Both the position numbers and the translations under genes were made by a program. 20,341 bases of DNA, from contig JBMFOM010000025.1 in assembly GCA_049969615.1 (NCBI GenBank), positions 1 to 20,341 on the forward strand, in the 5' to 3' direction. The DNA is from a candidate division WOR-3 bacterium (lineage in GTDB: Bacteria; Hydrothermota; Hydrothermia; JBDRYB01). The stretch's first letter is position 1, and each line of letters begins with the position of its first letter. The notes beneath the pieces were generated by a model. It had not been told where the DNA came from, did no database searches, and saw nothing but the letters and a program-made list of their open reading frames with translations. This document shows, piece by piece, positions 1,527-16,297 of this stretch.

Positions 1527-1634
1527 AATTGCTCAGTTTATCTCTGGAACCCGGGCGCGGCTCAATCTGGGATCCCTAACAAATACAAGGACTTAGAACC
1601 ATTGCATCAGAATCTGGCCGGTCTCCCCCAGTGT

Positions 1635-1663
1635 TTGATCCTGCGCAGAAGGTGGGTTATAAT
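1635..1663 (+). promoter_or_regulatory. dxs promoter (conserved promoter family, probably leaderless)
   Basis: TTGATC (1635-1640), 17 nt, TATAAT (1658-1663), 6 nt, ATG 1670. No SD sequence. Confidence 0.75.
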
Positions 1664-1669
1664 TTTGGT

Positions 1670-3601
1670 ATGAGCATTCTTGAAAGAATAGACTCTCCCC
1701 GCGACCTCACAAATCTGAGCGTTAAGGAGCTATACGAGCTCGCTGGGGAGATACGGGAAATCCTGATAGATGTCACATCCAGAAACGGCGGCCACCTCGG
1801 ACCGAGCCTGGGAGTAGTTGAACTCACAATAGCCCTCCATTACATATACGACAGCCCAAGGGACAGGATCATCTGGGATGTCGGCCACCAGTCCTACGCG
1901 CACAAGCTCCTCACCGGCAGGAAGGATAGGTTTCACACCCTCAGGCAATTGAACGGGCTTTCTGGTTTCACTAAGCCGGCCGAAAGCCCCCACGATCCCT
2001 TTGGCGCGGGCCACGCCTCCACCGCGATATCGGCCGCGCTTGGCATGGCAATAGCGCGGGACATGGCGGGCGAGGATTACAACATCATAGCCGTTGTTGG
2101 CGACGGCGCGCTGACCGGCGGCATGGCCATGGAGGCCCTGAATCACGCTGGCCACCTGAAAAAGAGGATGCTCCTAATCATCAACGACAACGAGCGTTCC
2201 ATAGCCGAGAATGTTGGCGGGTTGTCAAACTACCTGGCAAAGCTCTCCGGGAACAAGCTCTACAACAAGGTCAGGGAGGACATCAAGGAGTTGCTCGCGT
2301 CCATACCGGACAATCCGGTGAGCCGGAAGGCAAAGACCGTCGCGTGGAAGATGAAGGAATCCCTGAAAAACCTGATGATCCCGACGGTCATATTTGAGGA
2401 GCTGGGTTGGAGATATTTCGGGCCGGTCGGTGGCCATGATCTAGATCAGCTCATTGACATACTTGAGCATGTCAGATATTTCACGGATGGGCCGGTTGTG
2501 GTCCATGCGATAACCCAGAAAGGCAGGGGGTACGAACCCGCGATGCGGAACCCGGAGCTGTTCCACGGCATCGGGCCGTTCATAAAGGAGACCGGCGAAC
2601 CCATAAAGAAACCCGGCCCCCCCGCCTACTCACAGGTCTATGGTGATGCCATTGTCAGAGCGGCCGAAAGGGACGAGAGGGTTGTGGCCATCACCGCGGC
2701 GATGTGCCTCGGGACTGGGTTAGCCAACTTCAGGGAACGTTTCCCGGAAAGGCTCTTTGATGTTGGGATAGCGGAACAACACGCTGTTACCTCATCCGCG
2801 GCCATGGCCATGTCAGGGCTCATTCCCTTCTGCACCATATATTCAACCTTTTTGCAGAGGGCCTTTGACCAGATAATCCACGATGTGGCCCTGCACAAGG
2901 CGCCTGTTAGGTTTGCCCTGGACAGGGCTGGCCTGGTTGGTGACGATGGCCCCACCCACCACGGAACCTTTGACATCGCATACCTGAGGATGGTGCCGGA
3001 CATTGTCATCATGGCGCCGAAAGACGAGGACGAGCTCTCTGACATGGTCTGGACAATGGTCCATCACGATCAGGGGCCAATATCCGTCAGATACCCGCGG
3101 GGCACGGGGCCGGGCGTCCCGGTTAAGGAGGAGCCAGAGCTCATACCCATCGGAAGCTGGGAGGTCCTGAGGCCCGGCTCTGACCTAGCGATAATCGCTA
3201 CCGGCGCTATGGTTTATCCGGCGCTGGATGCGGCCGCTGAGCTTGAAAAGGACGGGGTTTCCGCAGAGGTGATCAACGCCAGGTTCATAAAACCCATGGA
3301 CGAAGAGCTCCTTCTGGCGCTTGTGGAGGGCGGTCCAATGGCATGGATCACCGTGGAGGAGGGAGTTCTGGCAGGGGGGTTTGGCGCCGGAGTAGCTGAG
3401 TTCCTTGAGGCAAAAGGTCTGCTCAACAAGATAAAACTGAGGCGCATCGGCCTTCCGGACCGGTTCATCACCCATGGATCAAGGGCTGAACTCCTCAGGA
3501 TGACGGGTCTGGATAGCCTGGGCATAACCGAAACAGCCAGGGAGTTCCTATGGCAGAAAAAAGGTGCCCGAGCTGTGGCACGAGTAAAACGGAGATCGTG
3601 A
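1670..3601 (+). CDS. dxs: 1-deoxy-D-xylulose-5-phosphate synthase
   Basis: Motifs GGHLGPSLGVVELT, IWDVGHQSY, GHASTAIS, GDGALTGG, DVGIAEQHA and GDDGPTHHG. Start moved from GTG 1631 to ATG 1670 (MSILERI...) because 1631-1663 is the promoter. Confidence 0.97.
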   Translation: MSILERIDSPRDLTNLSVKELYELAGEIREILIDVTSRNGGHLGPSLGVVELTIALHYIYDSPRDRIIWDVGHQSYAHKLLTGRKDRFHTLRQLNGLSGFTKPAESPHDPFGAGHASTAISAALGMAIARDMAGEDYNIIAVVGDGALTGGMAMEALNHAGHLKKRMLLIINDNERSIAENVGGLSNYLAKLSGNKLYNKVREDIKELLASIPDNPVSRKAKTVAWKMKESLKNLMIPTVIFEELGWRYFGPVGGHDLDQLIDILEHVRYFTDGPVVVHAITQKGRGYEPAMRNPELFHGIGPFIKETGEPIKKPGPPAYSQVYGDAIVRAAERDERVVAITAAMCLGTGLANFRERFPERLFDVGIAEQHAVTSSAAMAMSGLIPFCTIYSTFLQRAFDQIIHDVALHKAPVRFALDRAGLVGDDGPTHHGTFDIAYLRMVPDIVIMAPKDEDELSDMVWTMVHHDQGPISVRYPRGTGPGVPVKEEPELIPIGSWEVLRPGSDLAIIATGAMVYPALDAAAELEKDGVSAEVINARFIKPMDEELLLALVEGGPMAWITVEEGVLAGGFGAGVAEFLEAKGLLNKIKLRRIGLPDRFITHGSRAELLRMTGLDSLGITETAREFLWQKKGARAVARVKRRS

Positions 3602-3852
3602 GAGGCAGGGCTGGGTGTCCCCAGTGCTTCTCGGCTTTCAGGAAGGAAATTCAGGGTTTTCTCGGCTCAAGATTTGGCTCATTCACCTATCCGGGCGAAC
3701 CATATTTCAGGGACCCGGAATCCAGGGACATTGCCCGTCGTGTGGAGGAACTCCACGAGGCTCTCATGCTCGCTGTCCAAGAGGAGGACTACGAGCGCGC
3801 CGCGAGCCTCCGCGATGAGATAGAGGGCCTGAGAAAACGGCTTGTGAGATGA
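3550..3852 (+). CDS. Short McsA-like protein (two CxxC motifs plus a UvrB/UvrC coiled-coil motif)
   Basis: CPSCG...GRAGCPQCFSAF and LHEALMLAVQEEDYERAASLRDEI. GGAG precedes the ATG. Overlaps the dxs 3' end by 52 nt and is coupled (ATGA) to the next gene. Confidence 0.8.
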   Translation: MAEKRCPSCGTSKTEIVRGRAGCPQCFSAFRKEIQGFLGSRFGSFTYPGEPYFRDPESRDIARRVEELHEALMLAVQEEDYERAASLRDEIEGLRKRLVR

Positions 3853-4874
3853 AGGATATCCGGAGGATCGCGGAGGAGAGGCCTGAGTGGGTTTCGGCCA
3901 CGGGCTTGTATTCAGAAACGGTGATATATTCAGGGGTGGAGGTTGCGCGCTCCCTTGCTGGCGTCAAATTCTGGCCCAAGGCGGGCATTGGAAAGGGGAA
4001 ACAGAAGAGGGCCGCATCAAGGGCCATCGCGACTGCCTTTGGTCCAGAGGCGAGGTTTTCCGAACCAGAAAAAAGCGTAATGAGCGTCATATGGGAGAAA
4101 TACCCTTACATGAAAGGGGCCTCAATTGTTTTCTCCGGACGCGGAGGATTGCACGTCAGCGTGGGGCCGCGCGAGACCCTCAGGTTCTATTCGTATTCCG
4201 GAGGCGCGATCAGCGAATCCGTGTTCAGTAGGGCCACGGAGGCCGCGGAATCAGCCGGGCGAGCCGTGGAATTCGCTTACGATCCTGAGCTCGGCTTTCT
4301 CAACCCAAACCTTGAGGAGGTTGGATCCGGCCTCTGCTTCAGGGCCCTCCTGCACCTTCCTGGCATGACCCACACAGACGAGCTGGTTTTCCTGCGCGAG
4401 AGCCTGGAAAGGACTGGAGTAAAAACCAATGGGTTTTTCAGGGGATGGCCAAAACCGCGCGGCTGTTTGGTTAACATAACATATAGGCCCGGCCCCGGGG
4501 TCTGTCCGGCCGATGCCCAAGGTTCCTTCCACGAGATAATTCTGTTTGTCATTGATCAGGAGAAGGAGGCTAGGTCCGTCATGGTCGCGTCAGCAGAGGC
4601 CATACTGGAGGACAGGGCCATGAGGGCGCTGGCTACCCTGGGGGCCGCGAGGGTCATGGGATACGAGGAGCTGGCCGATATGATCTCATGGGTTAGGCTG
4701 GGAATCGCCATAGGCGCGCTTGAACCCATGCCGGTCCGGGAGATGAACGCGCTGTTGTTCCTGTCTGGCAGGTATCACATGCAAGCGATGGCAGGGAAAA
4801 AGCTCATCGAGCTTGAAGAGGACATAATGCGCGCCTCGTTCGTGAGGGCAGTTGTGGGGAGCTGGAGGGACTAA
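3849..4874 (+). CDS. McsB-like ATP:guanido phosphotransferase homolog with a degenerate active site
   Basis: Colinear similarity to McsB as recalled: FAYDPELGFL, LLHLPGM, IDQEKEAR, LEDRAMRA, SWVRLGI, EDIMRA. Lies directly after the McsA-like gene. Catalytic motifs are altered (see findings). Confidence 0.8.
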   Translation: MKDIRRIAEERPEWVSATGLYSETVIYSGVEVARSLAGVKFWPKAGIGKGKQKRAASRAIATAFGPEARFSEPEKSVMSVIWEKYPYMKGASIVFSGRGGLHVSVGPRETLRFYSYSGGAISESVFSRATEAAESAGRAVEFAYDPELGFLNPNLEEVGSGLCFRALLHLPGMTHTDELVFLRESLERTGVKTNGFFRGWPKPRGCLVNITYRPGPGVCPADAQGSFHEIILFVIDQEKEARSVMVASAEAILEDRAMRALATLGAARVMGYEELADMISWVRLGIAIGALEPMPVREMNALLFLSGRYHMQAMAGKKLIELEEDIMRASFVRAVVGSWRD

Positions 4875-5124: not shown

Positions 5125-6414
5125 CTACAGAACCACCACCCTATAAAGCCCCGCGTGGCCCGCTATTTTCACCCGGAGGTAATAGATCCCAGGCCCCAGC
5201 CCACCCACGGGGATCCTTACCTCTTCCCCTTGGTTGACTTCCCCGGCTATGGCATAAGCCTTTACCCCATCTACCCTATAAAGCCTACAATCCATGAAAC
5301 CCCCCAGGCCCGCGGTGAACCTTATGTAGCCCCCGGACTGGGATGGGCCATTGAGGATGATGGAGCCGAGAAGGAGGCCAGGCAAAGGCAGGGAATCAGA
5401 GGGAGGAGGTCCCCCTGTGTCGCTGGGGATAGCTCCGCGGGCAACCCGGACGACGCTGTCCTGAGAACCTACATAAGCGATGAATATGTTTTGGCTATCA
5501 GTAGCCGCTATGGAGCTGGTTGAAATTGAGCGCACGGTATCCACGAAATAATAAGTGGTCCCGCGAATCAGGTAAGGAAAGCGGTCGTCCTGCCCTATAG
5601 CGCTTAGCAGGTAAGAACCTACCTTGCAGATGTCCGGTCCCCAGAAAAGCCCCTTTATGGTATCGTTCATGGGCCAGGTCCTTATGTAGTCGCACTCATA
5701 CTTGGGGTTGTAATAAACGAGAAAGCTTCCCTCGCAAGCCATATCGTCCACCCGCTGGCCGCAGGGGCTATACTCATAGTACTGGTAATACTCATACTCA
5801 AAGCCGTCATATTCGTAGGAGCAGCTGTTGGGCACGGGGGCGTCTTTCTTGTAGTAATAGCTATCCGTGAAGATACTATAGTACACGACTCCAGAGGAGG
5901 ATACACTCACAGGCCCGCGCACGGAATAGGTGTATCTGTAGTAAAAAGGGGGATCAGGAGGGTAATACTGAACATAAGAGGAATCCACTATGGTCACGGT
6001 GAAGCTTCCAAGGGTATCGCCAACCCCTCTGTAGATCTTCTCAGGATAAAAAGAACAAAAACCAATGATTGGGTTATTCAGGACCAACAGGTCGTAATTC
6101 TCGCTAATGTATCCCAGGCTCTTTTTGAACCAAACCGATCCCGTTGATGAGCGATGGTAATAGGTCAGATTCCGTCCCGCCAAAACATGCAGGCCTTTGT
6201 CAGACTTCCCCACCCTGAGAACAGGCGGACTAGTGCATGTCCCTAGTGTCTCGCTCGGCCACGAGTCTCCCTCAAACCAGGAGTGGATTAGACTGCCTCC
6301 ACCCTGATAAACCAGATGAACTGTCCCTCCACTATCAACAGCGAGGGCCTCCGGGGTTATGTTCCCCCGGCCAAAACTCCACACCTGCCAAGCTCCGCAG
6401 AGAATCCACGCCAT
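5125..6414 (-). CDS. Secreted Tyr-rich protein with a T9SS type-A-like C-terminal sorting domain
   Basis: GGAGG RBS before ATG 6414. Beta-propeller-like segment LAVDSGGTVHLVY. Pro-rich linker followed by a C-terminus ending LGPGIYYLRV...LYRVVVL. Confidence 0.65.
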   Translation of the reverse strand: MAWILCGAWQVWSFGRGNITPEALAVDSGGTVHLVYQGGGSLIHSWFEGDSWPSETLGTCTSPPVLRVGKSDKGLHVLAGRNLTYYHRSSTGSVWFKKSLGYISENYDLLVLNNPIIGFCSFYPEKIYRGVGDTLGSFTVTIVDSSYVQYYPPDPPFYYRYTYSVRGPVSVSSSGVVYYSIFTDSYYYKKDAPVPNSCSYEYDGFEYEYYQYYEYSPCGQRVDDMACEGSFLVYYNPKYECDYIRTWPMNDTIKGLFWGPDICKVGSYLLSAIGQDDRFPYLIRGTTYYFVDTVRSISTSSIAATDSQNIFIAYVGSQDSVVRVARGAIPSDTGGPPPSDSLPLPGLLLGSIILNGPSQSGGYIRFTAGLGGFMDCRLYRVDGVKAYAIAGEVNQGEEVRIPVGGLGPGIYYLRVKIAGHAGLYRVVVL

Positions 6415-6470
6415 ATTTACCTCCAGCAAAATGTTAAAGCTTTCAGAGGAACCCGCGCAAGCTCTCGCGC

Positions 6471-6500
6471 TTGAAACGGCCTCCCGGCTGGCCTTACAAT
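6471..6500 (+). promoter_or_regulatory. Putative promoter of the rplM operon
   Basis: TTGAAA (6471-6476), 18 nt, TACAAT (6495-6500). Confidence 0.55.
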
Positions 6501-6533
6501 TTTGGCTCTCAGCGAAAGTGGAGATGTATTAGT

Positions 6534-6980
6534 ATGAAAACCTATCTGCCGAAAGCCGAGGAGATTGAGGCTGGGCGTTGCTGGCACCTTGTTGATGCCA
6601 AGGGCCAGACCCTTGGCCGTCTCGCTTCGGCTGTAGCACAACTGCTAACAGGCAAGAGAAAACCCATATGGGCCCCGCACCTGGATGTCGGGGATTATGT
6701 TGTGGTCATAAATGCCAGCCAGATCGTTCTCACAGGAAGAAAGTGGGACGACAAGAAGTATTATTCCCATTCCGGTTATCCAGGAGGGCTTCGGGAGCGC
6801 ACAGCCCGGCAGTTGGCTGAGAGGCACCCCGGCTGGTTGATATGGCTCGCTACAAAGAGGATGCTTCCCAGGAACAGACTGGGCAGGAAAATGGCGAGGA
6901 GACTAAAGGTATACTCGGGTTCGGATCACCCTCATGTCGCTCAGTCTCCCAAACCGGTTGATCTGAAGGAGTTCTTTTGA
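6534..6980 (+). CDS. rplM: 50S ribosomal protein L13
   Basis: MKTYLPK...WHLVDAKGQTLGRLAS, GDYVVVINA, HSGYPGGL and MLPRNRLGR. Start placed at ATG 6534. Confidence 0.97.
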   Translation: MKTYLPKAEEIEAGRCWHLVDAKGQTLGRLASAVAQLLTGKRKPIWAPHLDVGDYVVVINASQIVLTGRKWDDKKYYSHSGYPGGLRERTARQLAERHPGWLIWLATKRMLPRNRLGRKMARRLKVYSGSDHPHVAQSPKPVDLKEFF

Positions 6981-7378
6981 TGGAAGATAGACGTTTCGTT
7001 TTTGCGGCAGGCTCACGCAAGAGGGCGAGGGCGAGGGCGAGGGTCAAAGAGCCTGGCCACGGCTGGGTCTATGTCAACGGAAAGAGGCCCCTCGCTTACT
7101 TTGGCCGTGAAGACCTCGTGTTGGTGGCCACTGAGCCCCTCTCCAAAACCGGCGTCGCTGGCAAGGTTGATGTCGCGGTAAAGCTAGAGGGCGGCGGGCT
7201 TTCGGGCCAGGCCGGAGCCATGAGGCTCGCCATTTCCAGATGCCTGGCGCAGATGGATGTCCGCTATCGCGAGATACTCAAAAAAGAAGGGTTCATGGGC
7301 CGTGATCCCAGGGAAAAAGAGAGGATGAAGTATGGAAGAACCAAGAGAAGGCGCAGTTGGCAATACTCCAAGCGCTGA
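6980..7378 (+). CDS. rpsI: 30S ribosomal protein S9
   Basis: GGGLSGQAGAMRLAISR, RDPREKERMKYG and a QYSKR end. ATG overlaps the rplM stop (TGATG). Confidence 0.96.
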   Translation: MEDRRFVFAAGSRKRARARARVKEPGHGWVYVNGKRPLAYFGREDLVLVATEPLSKTGVAGKVDVAVKLEGGGLSGQAGAMRLAISRCLAQMDVRYREILKKEGFMGRDPREKERMKYGRTKRRRSWQYSKR

Positions 7379-7379
7379 C

Positions 7380-8105
7380 CTGGCGCCTGTGTCCCTGAAG
7401 AGCCTCCTGGAAGCAGGGGTTCATTTTGGCCACCCTCGGCAGAGGTGGAATCCCAAGATGAGGGAGTTCATATTCACCGAGAGGGGCGGGGTTCACATAA
7501 TTGACCTGAGAAAGACCCTCCCCCTTCTCCTGGCGGCCTATGACAAGATGAGGGATGTTGCCTTCAGGGGTGGGAACATTCTGTTCGTGGGGACCAAAAA
7601 ACAAGCCAGGGAAGTTGTCAGGGAGGAAGCCGAGCGCGCCGGTGTCTTCCATGTCACGGAGCGCTGGCCTGGGGGTCTACTGACTAACTTTGAAACCATC
7701 AGAAAGCGCCTTACCCGGATGCGTGAGCTGGAGGAACTAGTCTCAGAGATGGAGGGACTAAGGGCAGGGGGCAAAACCCTTCCCTATACCAAGAAGGAGC
7801 TCTCCCTGATGGAAAAGGAGCTCTACAAGCTCCAAAGGCTATTCGGTGGCATAAGGGATATGGAGGTCATGCCTGATATCATGTTTGTCGTGGATGTGGT
7901 TCAGGAAGACATAGCCATCAGGGAGGCCAGGAAGCTTGGCATCCCCATAACTGCCCTTCTGGACACGAATTCAGACCCCACTATTGTGGATTATCCAATT
8001 CCCGGAAACGACGATGCCATCCGCTCAATAAAGCTCGTGACCGAGACAATGGCCAACGCGGTTCTTGAGGGCAGGGGAGGAAAACAACCGCTGAGGAGTC
8101 AGTGA
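7380..8105 (+). CDS. rpsB: 30S ribosomal protein S2 (start uncertain: CTG 7380 or GTG 7389)
   Basis: LLEAGVHFGH, WNPKM, LFVGTKKQA, RWPGGLLTNF, DTNSDP and PGNDDAIRSI. Confidence 0.96.
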   Translation: MAPVSLKSLLEAGVHFGHPRQRWNPKMREFIFTERGGVHIIDLRKTLPLLLAAYDKMRDVAFRGGNILFVGTKKQAREVVREEAERAGVFHVTERWPGGLLTNFETIRKRLTRMRELEELVSEMEGLRAGGKTLPYTKKELSLMEKELYKLQRLFGGIRDMEVMPDIMFVVDVVQEDIAIREARKLGIPITALLDTNSDPTIVDYPIPGNDDAIRSIKLVTETMANAVLEGRGGKQPLRSQ

Positions 8106-8106
8106 G

Positions 8107-8973
8107 ATGGATATCCCCGTTAAACTCGTTAAAGAACTCCGGGACAGGACCGGCGCTGGATTCATGGATGCAAAGAAGGCGCTTGAGGAGGCCGGAGGCG
8201 ATATAGAGAAAGCCCTTGATGTCCTGAGGACGCGCGGCCTTGCCCGCGCCGACAAGCGCCTGGATCGCGAGGCAAAGGAGGGCAAGATCGGGATGTGGCT
8301 CTCTGTGGATAGAAGCCGCGGCGTCATCCTGGAGCTGAACTCCGAGACTGATTTCGTCGCAAGGACAGAGGAGTTTAGCAAACTACTTTCCGCGCTGACG
8401 CGAGCGGTAGCGGGGTCCGGGCCTGCTGATGTCCCAGCGTTGCTTGAGATGCCACTCCCTGACTACGCTAACGCGAAGGCCGGTGATGTGATAAAGGACC
8501 ATGTCGCTCGTATAGGCGAGAACATCCGGGTAAAACGTTTTGCCCTTTATCTCGCGGAGCCCGGTTCCATGGTTGACATCTACATTCATCCGGGGGATAT
8601 GCTCGGCGTCATCCTTGCTCTGGAGGCACCAGAAGGGCAGAGGTCCCTTGAAATAGCGCGCAACCTTGCCATGCAGATAGCCGCAATGGAACCCATTTCC
8701 GTCTCCAGGGATGATCTCCCCGCTGAGATCGTTGAGAAAGAGAAGGAGATATACCGCCAGCAGGCCCTTGAACAGGGCAAGCCGGAAAAGGTCATAGACA
8801 AGATAGTTGAGGGTAGACTGAAGACCTTTTACGAGGAGAGGGTCCTTCTTGAGCAGGCATACATCAGGGAACAGGGGATGACGGTTTCGGATTACCTCGC
8901 CGAAGCATCAAAGGAACTCGGTTCTTCCGTCAGGGTCTTGCGCTTCACCCGTTTCAAGGTGGGAGAGGATTGA
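8107..8973 (+). CDS. tsf: Translation elongation factor Ts
   Basis: VKELRDRTGAGFMDAKKAL, ELNSETDFVA, IGENI and AMQIAAM. Confidence 0.97.
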   Translation: MDIPVKLVKELRDRTGAGFMDAKKALEEAGGDIEKALDVLRTRGLARADKRLDREAKEGKIGMWLSVDRSRGVILELNSETDFVARTEEFSKLLSALTRAVAGSGPADVPALLEMPLPDYANAKAGDVIKDHVARIGENIRVKRFALYLAEPGSMVDIYIHPGDMLGVILALEAPEGQRSLEIARNLAMQIAAMEPISVSRDDLPAEIVEKEKEIYRQQALEQGKPEKVIDKIVEGRLKTFYEERVLLEQAYIREQGMTVSDYLAEASKELGSSVRVLRFTRFKVGED

Positions 8974-14418: not shown

Positions 14419-14612
14419 GTATTTGAGGATCCGTGATCCTTTCTCCGGCTGGCACCCATAAACCCCATAGGAGTTGAGCCAAAAGAGGCAAGCCAGACGA
14501 AGGATCTCGCCCGGTCCCTTTTCAAACAAGGCAGAGACACCCCACATGGGCGGGTAAAGTGGCCTGGGAGGCCTTGATCTTCCACGCGTTATCCATTATC
14601 ATTATTATCTTC

Positions 14613-15542
14613 ATGTTCAGGATAAGATTTCCGGTCATACGCGAGGGCGTGGCCGTCAGCAACAAAAACCTCCAGAAGGAGATAGCAGGACTTGAAGAAG
14701 GCAAGAGAACAGGCTTCGTGCGCATAACTGCTGGCGGAAGCTGCTATTATCTTTTCCTTGATAATGGATTCTGTGTTGGCGGGGGCATTGAGAGCGATGT
14801 TGGCAGGCGGTTGGAGTCTCCGTCCTCGGTCATGGAAGACCTGGAAAAGACACTGCGAATGGAAAAGGGGGTGATGGATGCCTATGATGTTCACCCGGAT
14901 CTAATCCATCACCTCATAGGCTATTTCGCGGCAAAGATCGTTTCCGAGGACCTGCCGGGCGAACTGTTCAACCTGCCCGAGATGGTCAAGAAGCTCCGGA
15001 CCGCTGGTTTTACCGGCTTCATCTGGGGCCAAGGAAAATATGAGGTGGTAATATTCCTTTCCTTTGGCGAGATAGCGGGCATATTCGTTGATGGAGCGGC
15101 CTCCACCCTGGAACGCGCGTCCGAGGCCGTGGCCGAGTGCAAGGTGGGCGTGCAGAACACCGAACGGGCGATTGATGTCGAGAGCCAGATATTCTCCAGA
15201 GAGATGAAGACGAGGTTCCTGGAGGAAACCTACTCAATGGTTTATCAGATGGTTCACAAGGCCCACAACGGCGCGGAGGGATTTGAACTGGTCATACGAG
15301 AGTCCATGATGGTGCACTCCTCGGAATGCCCCCTCCTCAACCCATTCCTCGGGATCGTGGATCTGAAGGGCGGAAAGGTGAGGGTTGATCCTGGAGTTGA
15401 TCCGGATGAGCTGGCCGCACCTTTCTATAGGGCGTTATACGCGGGGGCAAAGGCGTATCTTTCGGATGACCCGGCCACCATGAGGGATGTCCTCTCGGCC
15501 ATATCCGAAAGGGCACAAGAGGCGGGGATCGCTATCAAATGA
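14613..15542 (+). CDS. Hypothetical cytoplasmic protein with two DUF4388/PATAN-like repeats
   Basis: Two internal repeats, KRTGFVRITAGGSCYYLFLDNGFCVG and GFTGFIWGQGKYEVVIFLSFGEIAG. Start moved to ATG 14613, after TTGATC-17-TATCAT (14574-14602). Confidence 0.5.
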   Translation: MFRIRFPVIREGVAVSNKNLQKEIAGLEEGKRTGFVRITAGGSCYYLFLDNGFCVGGGIESDVGRRLESPSSVMEDLEKTLRMEKGVMDAYDVHPDLIHHLIGYFAAKIVSEDLPGELFNLPEMVKKLRTAGFTGFIWGQGKYEVVIFLSFGEIAGIFVDGAASTLERASEAVAECKVGVQNTERAIDVESQIFSREMKTRFLEETYSMVYQMVHKAHNGAEGFELVIRESMMVHSSECPLLNPFLGIVDLKGGKVRVDPGVDPDELAAPFYRALYAGAKAYLSDDPATMRDVLSAISERAQEAGIAIK

Positions 15543-16297
15543 GGTGGGCCTTTGCTTTACTTATGACCTGTTATCTGGCCCTGGGAGCGATGGTCGCCTG
15601 GGAGGGATACATGATAACCCGCGAGAGGGCAAGGTCAAAGAAAGACCTTGAGAGTATAGTGCTGATGACCCGTTTCCAAAGGTCTTCAACCAGGCTACAG
15701 GTTTTCCTTGAGAAGTATCACATCCTGGGCGAGGCGGTCTGGATGGAGAGGTTCAGGGTAGAGAGGGATATGACCGGCAATCTTGCCAGATCAATATCTC
15801 AAGGAAAGGATGGCCAGGGCGGCTCGCTCCCCATCAGCCCGGGCGACAGGGCGAAGTTCACCAGGAATTGGGATGAATACATCGCCCTGGCGGATTCAGC
15901 CTTTGCCCTGGGCAAAACAAAGGCAAGAGAGCTCTATGTTACCCGCGCGGCCCTGCGACAGGAGGAAATGTCCCTTATTGCTGAAAACACCATACAGAAT
16001 ATCATTCGGAACAGGCCCTCGTTCGCTTTCATGACGTGGATCAACCTGGCCCTGGCCATGCTGGTGGTCATGCTCGGTCTCCTGACCTTTCATCAGATGG
16101 TCGTTCTGCCAGCCAGGCGTCTCGCCAGGGAGGCAAAGCGCATTGCTGTTGGAGACCTGGACGGTCCAGTGACAATGAGGGCGCCGGGGAGGCTCGGACA
16201 GATAGCCGATAGCCTTGAGGAGCTCAGGATGAACCTTATAGAGACCAGGGAACAGGTCAAACGGTTGATCTCCAGAAGGCCAAGCGTGGAGAGGTGA
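15539..16297 (+). CDS. Membrane sensor: TM, helical extracytoplasmic domain, TM, HAMP, with no output domain
   Basis: Two hydrophobic segments. HAMP-like VLPARRLAREAKRIAVGDLDGPVTMRAPGRLGQIADSLEELRMNL is followed by only about 18 aa. ATGA overlap with the upstream gene. Confidence 0.75.
   Translation: MRWAFALLMTCYLALGAMVAWEGYMITRERARSKKDLESIVLMTRFQRSSTRLQVFLEKYHILGEAVWMERFRVERDMTGNLARSISQGKDGQGGSLPISPGDRAKFTRNWDEYIALADSAFALGKTKARELYVTRAALRQEEMSLIAENTIQNIIRNRPSFAFMTWINLALAMLVVMLGLLTFHQMVVLPARRLAREAKRIAVGDLDGPVTMRAPGRLGQIADSLEELRMNLIETREQVKRLISRRPSVER

Follow-up and report, generated by a model that had tools for sequence, protein, structure and literature searches.

McsB is the founding protein-arginine kinase, and the module that it forms with McsA and ClpC has so far been explained through phosphoarginine (pArg). 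In the phosphagen kinases, arginines hold the phosphates of ATP and glutamates position the guanidinium group, roles that are known in part from arginine-kinase structures. The enzyme of B. subtilis carries a pArg receptor pocket formed by R337, R341, S285 and D338, the R337A/D338A mutant is described as disrupting pArg-dependent assembly, and R190 and R194 are described as the autophosphorylation site of the McsB octamer (PMC8370763). McsA, for its part, binds the kinase domain of McsB in a crystal structure through its second zinc domain, its linker and its coiled coil, F97, S100 and Y103 being McsB contacts (PMC11046695). At the receiving end, E32 and E106 of ClpC are named as crucial pArg determinants in another report (PMC12583610). 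The subject of this work is a McsB homologue whose catalytic residues are gone, encoded next to a short McsA in a 20,341-nucleotide stretch of DNA from a candidate division WOR-3 bacterium (contig JBMFOM010000025.1 of assembly GCA_049969615.1, positions 1 to 20,341; hereafter, the window).

The account favoured here, with a probability of roughly 60%, is that this gene encodes a McsB-family pseudoenzyme, kept for a non-catalytic module in which it is paired with the McsB-binding half of McsA. The protein consists of a phosphagen-kinase-like domain (residues ~1-240) and a helical dimerisation domain (~241-341), and the first-pass annotation of this DNA, which had described an intact open reading frame (ORF) of 341 amino acids colinear with McsB, proved right: the frame runs unbroken, and in a phmmer search against PDB sequences the top match is the McsB of G. 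stearothermophilus (6fh1, E-value 6.9e-21), colinear over residues 14-334. Pfam ATP-gua_Ptrans (PF00217) matches residues 89-240 with 44.2 bits (cut-off 22.4), the scores to the five NCBIfam McsB equivalog models all fall far short of the cut-offs (117.3 bits against 385, 106.7 against 500, 78.5 against 679, 75.9 against 381 and 52.6 against 471), and no Pfam or NCBIfam family besides ATP-gua_Ptrans/McsB matches the protein. An AlphaFold2 model made from an alignment of 103 sequences (A1; eight proteins of the clade described below and 95 others) has a predicted local distance difference test score (pLDDT) of 93.7 and a predicted template modelling score (pTM) of 0.92. In a Foldseek search the ten best matches of this model are McsB chains, the first eight with a template modelling (TM) score to the query of 0.82-0.89; the best by E-value is 6fh3_A (4.9e-24, TM-score 0.88), 6fh1_A and three chains of 6tv6 reach 0.89, and arginine kinases rank after the McsB chains, with TM-scores of about 0.5. 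Regarding dimerisation, the contacts of the McsB dimer include F272, R273, R282 and E288 (PMC12387690), of which the last three are kept in the PDB alignment as R259, R268 and E274, and F272 is replaced by Met; R259 and E274 are nearly invariant. The McsB fold is retained in this predicted structure, and the residues of the dimer interface are retained in the alignment.

The catalytic and receptor sites are located as follows, with the evidence for each in brackets.

3849-4874, forward strand: McsB homologue with its catalytic residues gone (P0001, 341 amino acids), an unbroken frame (Pfam, NCBIfam and PDB matches; AlphaFold and Foldseek).
3927-3953, forward strand: YSGVEVARS replacing SSRxRxARN, McsB residues 27-35 (PDB alignment, A1).
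4164-4184, forward strand: GPRETLR replacing NEEDHxR, McsB residues 106-112 (PDB alignment, A1).
4293-4337, forward strand: GFLNPNLEEVGSGLC replacing GYLTSCPTNxGTGLR, McsB residues 149-163 (PDB alignment, A1, complex model).
4428-4451, forward strand: NGFFRGWP replacing RGxYGEGS, with the Arg and Glu212 substituted (PDB alignment, A1).
4812-4835, forward strand: LEEDIMRA, which forms the receptor-site helix for pArg, with R337 replaced by Glu and D338 and R341 kept (PDB alignment, A1, scoring of relatives; site from PMC8370763).

The B. subtilis numbering was set by alignment to 8wtb_A and checked on T165, S166, P168, R190, R194, S285, R337 and D338, as given in the papers; native numbers are used neither for the glutamates of NEEDH nor for the N-terminal arginines, for which the motif is named instead. 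Each of the motif substitutions listed in the first-pass annotation is seen in the PDB alignment. SSRIRLARN has become YSGVEVARS, with its first two arginines replaced by Gly and Glu and the third kept, and NEEDHIR has become GPRETLR, with both glutamates replaced (by Pro and Arg) and the final Arg kept. In the same way, GYLTSCPTNVGTGLR has become GFLNPNLEEVGSGLC, which replaces C167 by Asn154 and the closing Arg of GTGLR by Cys163, and VRGTYGEGSE has become TNGFFRGWPK, which replaces the Arg of VRG by Asn194 and E212 by Gly199. Altogether, one of the nine scored catalytic or ATP-binding positions is kept, the Arg of NEEDHxR, and two of the five phosphate-binding arginines (R34 and R112), the replaced ones, those of SSRxRxARN included, being now Gly29, Glu31, Cys163 and Asn194. 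R190 and R194 have become Asp and Phe. This makes it very probable, as far as residues can tell, that the protein is not a canonical arginine kinase. The same annotation had regarded the C-terminal domain as much better kept, of which a weaker version stands: against 16 canonical relatives from the class, identity averages 30% in this domain and 22% in the kinase domain (49% and 44% for a canonical control, L005, against the other 15), and the receptor Arg is replaced there too.

These replacements are not particular to one sequence. They are carried by seven further database proteins, 55-74% identical to the window McsB in BLASTP (where a 301-amino-acid fragment identical to it was also returned, and the source of a 55%-identical relative assigns it to candidate division WOR-3), and by three further loci, two of them in genomes of the same genus and one on a metagenome contig; identities of 54-74% imply that these orthologues are not assembly copies of one sequence. 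No break in the frame is seen in the window or in any of the orthologues, i.e., three further loci with DNA and seven database proteins, which are partly the same genes. In alignment A1, G29, E31, P107 and G199 are present in all eight clade proteins, at positions where the other 95 sequences have mostly Arg (86/95), Arg (80/95), Glu (79/95) and Glu (73/95), respectively, and R108, N154 and C163 are present in seven of the eight, where the others have Glu (81/95), Cys (72/95) and Arg (82/95); the column of C167 holds Asn in seven clade members and Asp in one. Moreover, what has come in place of the motifs is itself conserved: GPRE, NPNLEE and GWP(K/R)P are fixed in seven or eight of the eight members, the GFLNPNLEEVGSGLC loop is nearly invariant (13 of 15 columns), and the four former active-site motifs contain 26 invariant columns out of 39, versus 108 out of 302 elsewhere (134 of 341 in all), an odds ratio of 3.6 that is descriptive, the sequences being related. 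The clade is narrow, since a HMMER search against 1.84 billion cluster representatives, which gave 2229 relatives at E <= 0.001, found a single 50%-identity cluster at E < 1e-100 (69% identity), with the next one at 29%.

Selection was approached through the ratio of nonsynonymous to synonymous substitution rates (dN/dS, Nei-Gojobori), which lies at 0.11-0.21 over the six pairs of four orthologues (kinase domain 0.09-0.18, dimerisation domain 0.12-0.29); the values rest on four sequences, the metagenome scan having given one locus, and are rough owing to a saturated dS (1.1-2.1). For comparison, where dS is computable the ratio is 0.07-0.24 for canonical McsB pairs of the class; in the genus it is 0.10 for dxs and 0.14-0.31 for mcsA. 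In a maximum-likelihood tree (38 rows, quick search), the stem of the clade measures 2.55 changes per column and the inner branches 0.12-0.51, a pattern of rapid change on the stem and then of constraint under strong purifying selection. The earlier claim that catalysis was lost and selection retained is borne out by the replaced motifs (8/8), by these ratios and by the intact predicted fold. Simple decay would have been indicated by canonical motifs in close relatives and a dN/dS near 1; what was found instead is that the close relatives share the replacements and that dN/dS is 0.11-0.21. It can be held with considerable confidence that the McsB homologue is a functional, selected protein.

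The partner with which it would work is encoded immediately upstream.

3550-3852, forward strand: short McsA of 100 amino acids (Pfam UVR, NCBIfam McsA and PDB profile matches).

This McsA comprises the second zinc domain (C6, C9, C23 and C26), the linker and the UVR-type coiled coil, without the first zinc domain, and its stop overlaps the start of mcsB by 4 nucleotides (ATGA). It matches Pfam UVR with 30 bits, NCBIfam McsA over positions 77-174 of 182, and 8wtb_B by profile with an E-value of 1.5e-39. In an alignment of McsA copies (A2), the Cys4 site is invariant in 27/27, and the three aligned copies of the genus lack the first zinc domain, which all 24 others of the class have (a fourth copy from the genus was left out due to a run of N in its record). 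What the genus has kept is the half that in the crystal structure touches the McsB kinase domain. With numbering transferred through the 8wtb_B profile alignment, the three McsA contacts are changed in the genus only (F97 to Ala, S100 to Pro and Y103 to Phe), and their McsB partners are changed as well (T165 to Asn, S166 to Pro and P168 to Leu), paired changes that are read as a co-evolution of an interface still in use. A model of the complex of McsB residues 1-245 with McsA scores 0.82 (median of three runs), the best of three controls scoring 0.00; the mark applied is reached by 58 of 80 solved complexes and by 2 of 110 mismatched pairs. Agreement between runs is at least 83% of the contacts, with a partner pLDDT of at least 80. 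The modelled interface involves residues 35-44, 142-160 and 214-219 of McsB and 8-27 and 34-55 of McsA, and the conserved loop at McsB residues 147-160 lies largely within it. On the strength of this model, the McsB homologue probably still binds McsA.

If McsB is no longer a kinase, what has become of the pArg circuit around it? In the receptor pocket, R337 is Glu in all eight clade proteins, D338 and R341 are kept, and the region of S285 reads Gly-Tyr. A second McsB was not found, either by a PF00217 search of the window genome (98% complete), where only this locus was returned, or with a canonical query (P0011, 9/9 key residues), which hit a single locus per genome in the three genomes of the genus. 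CtsR was found neither in the window genome nor in any of 41 genomes of the class, including canonical-McsB relatives, so its absence is not diagnostic for the genus. MecA was not found in the window genome either, and, regarding a YwlE-type pArg phosphatase, its only gene with a low-molecular-weight phosphatase fold (LMWPc) best matches arsenate reductase models, under their cut-offs. ClpP is present, and so is ClpC, encoded on contig C33 with two Clp_N repeats and identified by alignment to solved N-domains. In it the equivalent of E32 is kept, as in 39/39 genomes, and that of E106 is Gln; at the latter position the three genomes of the genus have Q, Q and H and 34 of 36 others have Glu, which is lost outside the genus only in two g8 genomes, with Gly instead. 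This coincidence of ClpC E106 loss with a degenerate McsB is a suggestive correlation only. Taken as a whole, the pArg circuit looks dismantled, judging by these residues and gene contents.

Two further observations concern the Clp proteins. The two g8 genomes (G009 and G034, loci L065 and L066) have DTGH for GTEH in ClpC, and no McsB was found in them with the window protein as query. In G000, contig C19 carries at 5817-8759 (forward strand) a second Clp/Hsp100-type ATPase frame of 981 amino acids, with an N-terminal extension of ~350 residues and a weak Clp_N match.

The course of events that would account for these features starts with the descent from a protein-arginine kinase, followed by the loss of ATP-phosphate binding, of the catalytic glutamates and of the catalytic Cys, together with that of the key Arg of the protein's own pArg receptor pocket. 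The second zinc domain and the linker of McsA would still dock on the former active-site loop, the pair would form a dimer-based complex, and this complex would work by stoichiometric binding and not by phosphorylation, perhaps in protein quality control, as a stress-sensing or client-binding adaptor or a regulator that may feed ClpC/ClpP. Of these steps, the one towards ClpC is the weakest; it is plausible from the biology of the family, and a joint action of the McsB homologue with ClpC is nonetheless rather doubtful. More specifically, the McsA-McsB pair might have a kinase-independent job for which the old active site was rebuilt as a binding surface, with the Arg at the position of the guanidinium-positioning Glu acting as an internal pseudo-substrate by which the McsA-bound state is locked, so that the complex would serve protein quality control as an adaptor or sensor without phosphorylation; this elaboration is speculative, and the odds are against it.

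Several observations weigh against the pseudoenzyme account. The lack of kinase activity is read from sequence only, and R34, R112 and the conserved HLP-motif His are still in place, so that some nucleotide binding may persist; furthermore, new conserved acidic residues (E31, E109, E156 and E157) are located in the old pocket, and catalytic residues may have migrated, shifted positions having been judged from the alignment. The ratios that speak for selection share the saturation of dS mentioned above. The success of the complex model may reflect its likeness to the solved 8wtc and 8gqd, in which case it shows likeness and not binding by this copy. As for ClpC, the correlation is weak: the lineages g4, g6 and g17, whose McsB is degenerate, keep both glutamates, as do g2, g11 and g18, where no McsB was found, and clpC does not adjoin mcsB in the window. 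Finally, the conservation of the former active site fits a repurposed ligand site or a new chemistry as well as it fits an interface with McsA.

This last point leads to the main rival, according to which the former active site binds another ligand (free or protein arginine, a nucleotide or a small molecule) or runs a new reaction, the protein thus being a sensor or a new enzyme. In its favour, conservation within the clade is highest at the former active-site motifs, whose new residues are fixed, R34, R112 and the conserved His are kept, and a change of function typically leaves just such a long stem with constraint after it. On the other hand, the modelled McsA interface holds much of loop 147-160 and could by itself explain the conservation, the neighbouring genes indicate no candidate ligand or reaction (dxs also stands upstream in canonical relatives), and no other family matches the protein, so a repurposed pocket is considered unlikely. 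A protein that is still an arginine kinase, or some other phosphotransferase, through migrated or non-canonical residues is less credible still. Pseudoenzymes defined by motif loss are sometimes active through migrated residues, as has been noted in general terms (PMC10211241), and both the acidic residues near the old pocket and the retention of McsA, the kinase activator, would agree with it. Yet three of the five phosphate-binding arginines (one of them turned into Glu), both glutamates of NEED, Glu212 and Cys167 are lost, the readers of pArg have changed too, both in the protein's own R337 and in the E106 equivalent of ClpC (Gln or His), and the receptor Arg was lost alongside catalysis in each of the four degenerate lineages of the class (12/12 proteins, versus 19/19 scorable canonical or near-canonical ones that keep it), which makes this improbable.

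Two other possibilities can be given even less weight. The first-pass annotation had suggested a pArg reader or a dominant-negative partner beside an active arginine kinase elsewhere in the cell, and the retained dimerisation domain with its interface residues and D338 and R341 of the receptor pocket are in its favour. The reader option is undermined by the Glu at R337 in 8/8 clade proteins, at a site where the R337A/D338A mutation impairs pArg-dependent assembly in B. subtilis (PMC8370763), and the dominant-negative option by the lack of a second ATP-gua_Ptrans gene in a 98%-complete genome and by the single McsB locus in each of the three genus genomes; both appear very improbable. That the gene is a decaying relic, dead before the arrival of stop codons, would agree with the loss of all the catalytic motifs and with the failure to find a McsB in families f2 (0/3 genomes) and f8 (0/5) when the window protein was the query, where the system may be dispensable, but intact frames in the orthologues, a dN/dS of 0.11-0.21, 134 invariant columns and a confident predicted fold make it scarcely conceivable.

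A McsB pseudoenzyme of this kind would not stand alone. Among 31 McsB loci of class relatives, 18 are canonical at every scored column, two lack only the Cys, two (g17) are partly degenerate and nine (g1, g4 and g6) heavily so. The receptor Arg is lost in all 12 degenerate proteins of the class, including that of the window, and kept in all 19 scorable canonical or near-canonical ones. The second glutamate of NEED is Arg in g1, g4 and g17, and also in several unrelated representatives; of the best 150 representatives, a list biased towards the query, 134 could be scored, and 97 keep nine of nine key residues and 29 keep five or fewer. For the g6 pair, dN/dS is 0.10 with an unsaturated dS. The degenerate lineages sit on long branches of the tree, where g1 is joined to g6 (support 93) and g4 to g17 (support 90), and two or four origins both fit, long-branch attraction being possible. 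These data suggest that the loss of McsB catalysis is a recurrent evolutionary outcome and not a one-off. No description of a catalytically dead McsB, or of a pseudoenzyme of the phosphagen-kinase family, was found in the literature within view, which excludes subscription papers and supplements.

Regarding individual loci, L012 and L018 (g6), L033-L037 (g4) and L020 and L024 (g17) encode degenerate McsB proteins with 0-6 of the nine key residues and without the receptor Arg, accompanied by a full-length McsA. Separately, the representatives P0020, P0037 and P0100 (523-556 amino acids) are McsB relatives ~180-270 residues longer at the N-terminus, and may be fusions.

The surroundings of the pair in the window are housekeeping genes, namely dxs, rplM, rpsI, rpsB, tsf, pyrH and menaquinone genes, the first of which adjoins mcsA.

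1631-3601, forward strand: dxs, the conserved upstream neighbour of mcsA (Pfam, NCBIfam; context only).

The frame of dxs overlaps the start of mcsA by 52 nucleotides. A functional link between dxs and the loss of catalysis was considered and rejected, as dxs lies directly upstream of canonical mcsAB across the class too: this order is found in 20 of the 31 class loci and in most families, canonical and degenerate alike. Likewise, a clpC downstream of mcsB was considered in L005 and L006, due to a UVR-type match, and rejected, the ClpC of the genome having no blastp hit in any mcsB locus. What these two loci of family f9 do contain directly 3' of a canonical mcsB is an ORF on the reverse strand (L005:159-1559 and L006:224-1906) with a UVR-type match to the McsA coiled coil, which is not ClpC by blastp. 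In the window, a 434-amino-acid ORF at 5125-6429 (reverse strand) is convergent on mcsB and has neither a Pfam or NCBIfam match nor a blastp match in other mcsB loci, and at 14559-16297 (forward strand) a 327-amino-acid ORF without a Pfam match is followed by an overlapping one of 252 amino acids whose sole match is a HAMP domain.

The significance of the pseudoenzyme account comes from how the module has been understood. Here is a lineage without the kinase chemistry, without its own pArg pocket and without one of the pArg sites of ClpC, in which McsB and the McsB-binding half of McsA are nevertheless under strong selection, and the retention of the pair without the kinase residues speaks for a further activity of the module that does not depend on phosphorylation. 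Such a lineage is a clean natural separation-of-function variant from which that activity could be found. If the more speculative reading, with a rebuilt active site and a kinase-independent job, is true, kinase-dead McsB proteins would be a widespread and so far undescribed class of bacterial pseudoenzymes. If the loss of catalysis is recurrent, this would matter for annotation, since such genes are labelled ATP:guanido phosphotransferases or protein arginine kinases, and for the inference of pArg signalling outside Bacillota.

Compared with the described systems, the window protein shares with the McsB of Bacillus subtilis, G. stearothermophilus and Staphylococcus aureus (6fh1-3, 6tv6, 8gqd, 8wtb/c) the two-domain fold (TM-score 0.88 to 6fh3_A and 0.89 to 6fh1_A and 6tv6_D), the position of its gene directly 3' of mcsA, and a modelled McsA docking site that matches the solved interface regions. 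It departs from them in keeping one of nine key positions, in the Glu at R337, in the Asp and Phe at R190 and R194, and in scoring under the NCBIfam cut-offs; moreover, unlike Bacillus-type systems, no ctsR was found in its genome and clpC does not stand beside mcsB. Its McsA has the second zinc domain, the linker and the UVR-type coiled coil of B. subtilis McsA (8wtb_B), but lacks the first zinc domain and has F97, S100 and Y103 changed. Closer in organism, the canonical pairs of the WOR-3 class (L005, L007 and L008) share the order dxs-mcsA-mcsB and the length and domains of McsB, but those pairs keep the nine residues, the receptor Arg and a full-length McsA, and the stem of 2.55 changes separates the clade from them. 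The class lineages g4, g6 and g17 resemble it in that a full-length McsB with dismantled catalytic residues is kept beside McsA under selection, whereas only the window genus has an McsA that is also without the first zinc domain. In more general terms, the protein is like pseudokinases and other pseudoenzymes in that the catalytic motifs are gone and the fold, the selection and, as modelled here, the binding of a partner are kept, and unlike the Hanks-type pseudokinases in that all of this is built on the scaffold of the phosphagen-kinase fold.

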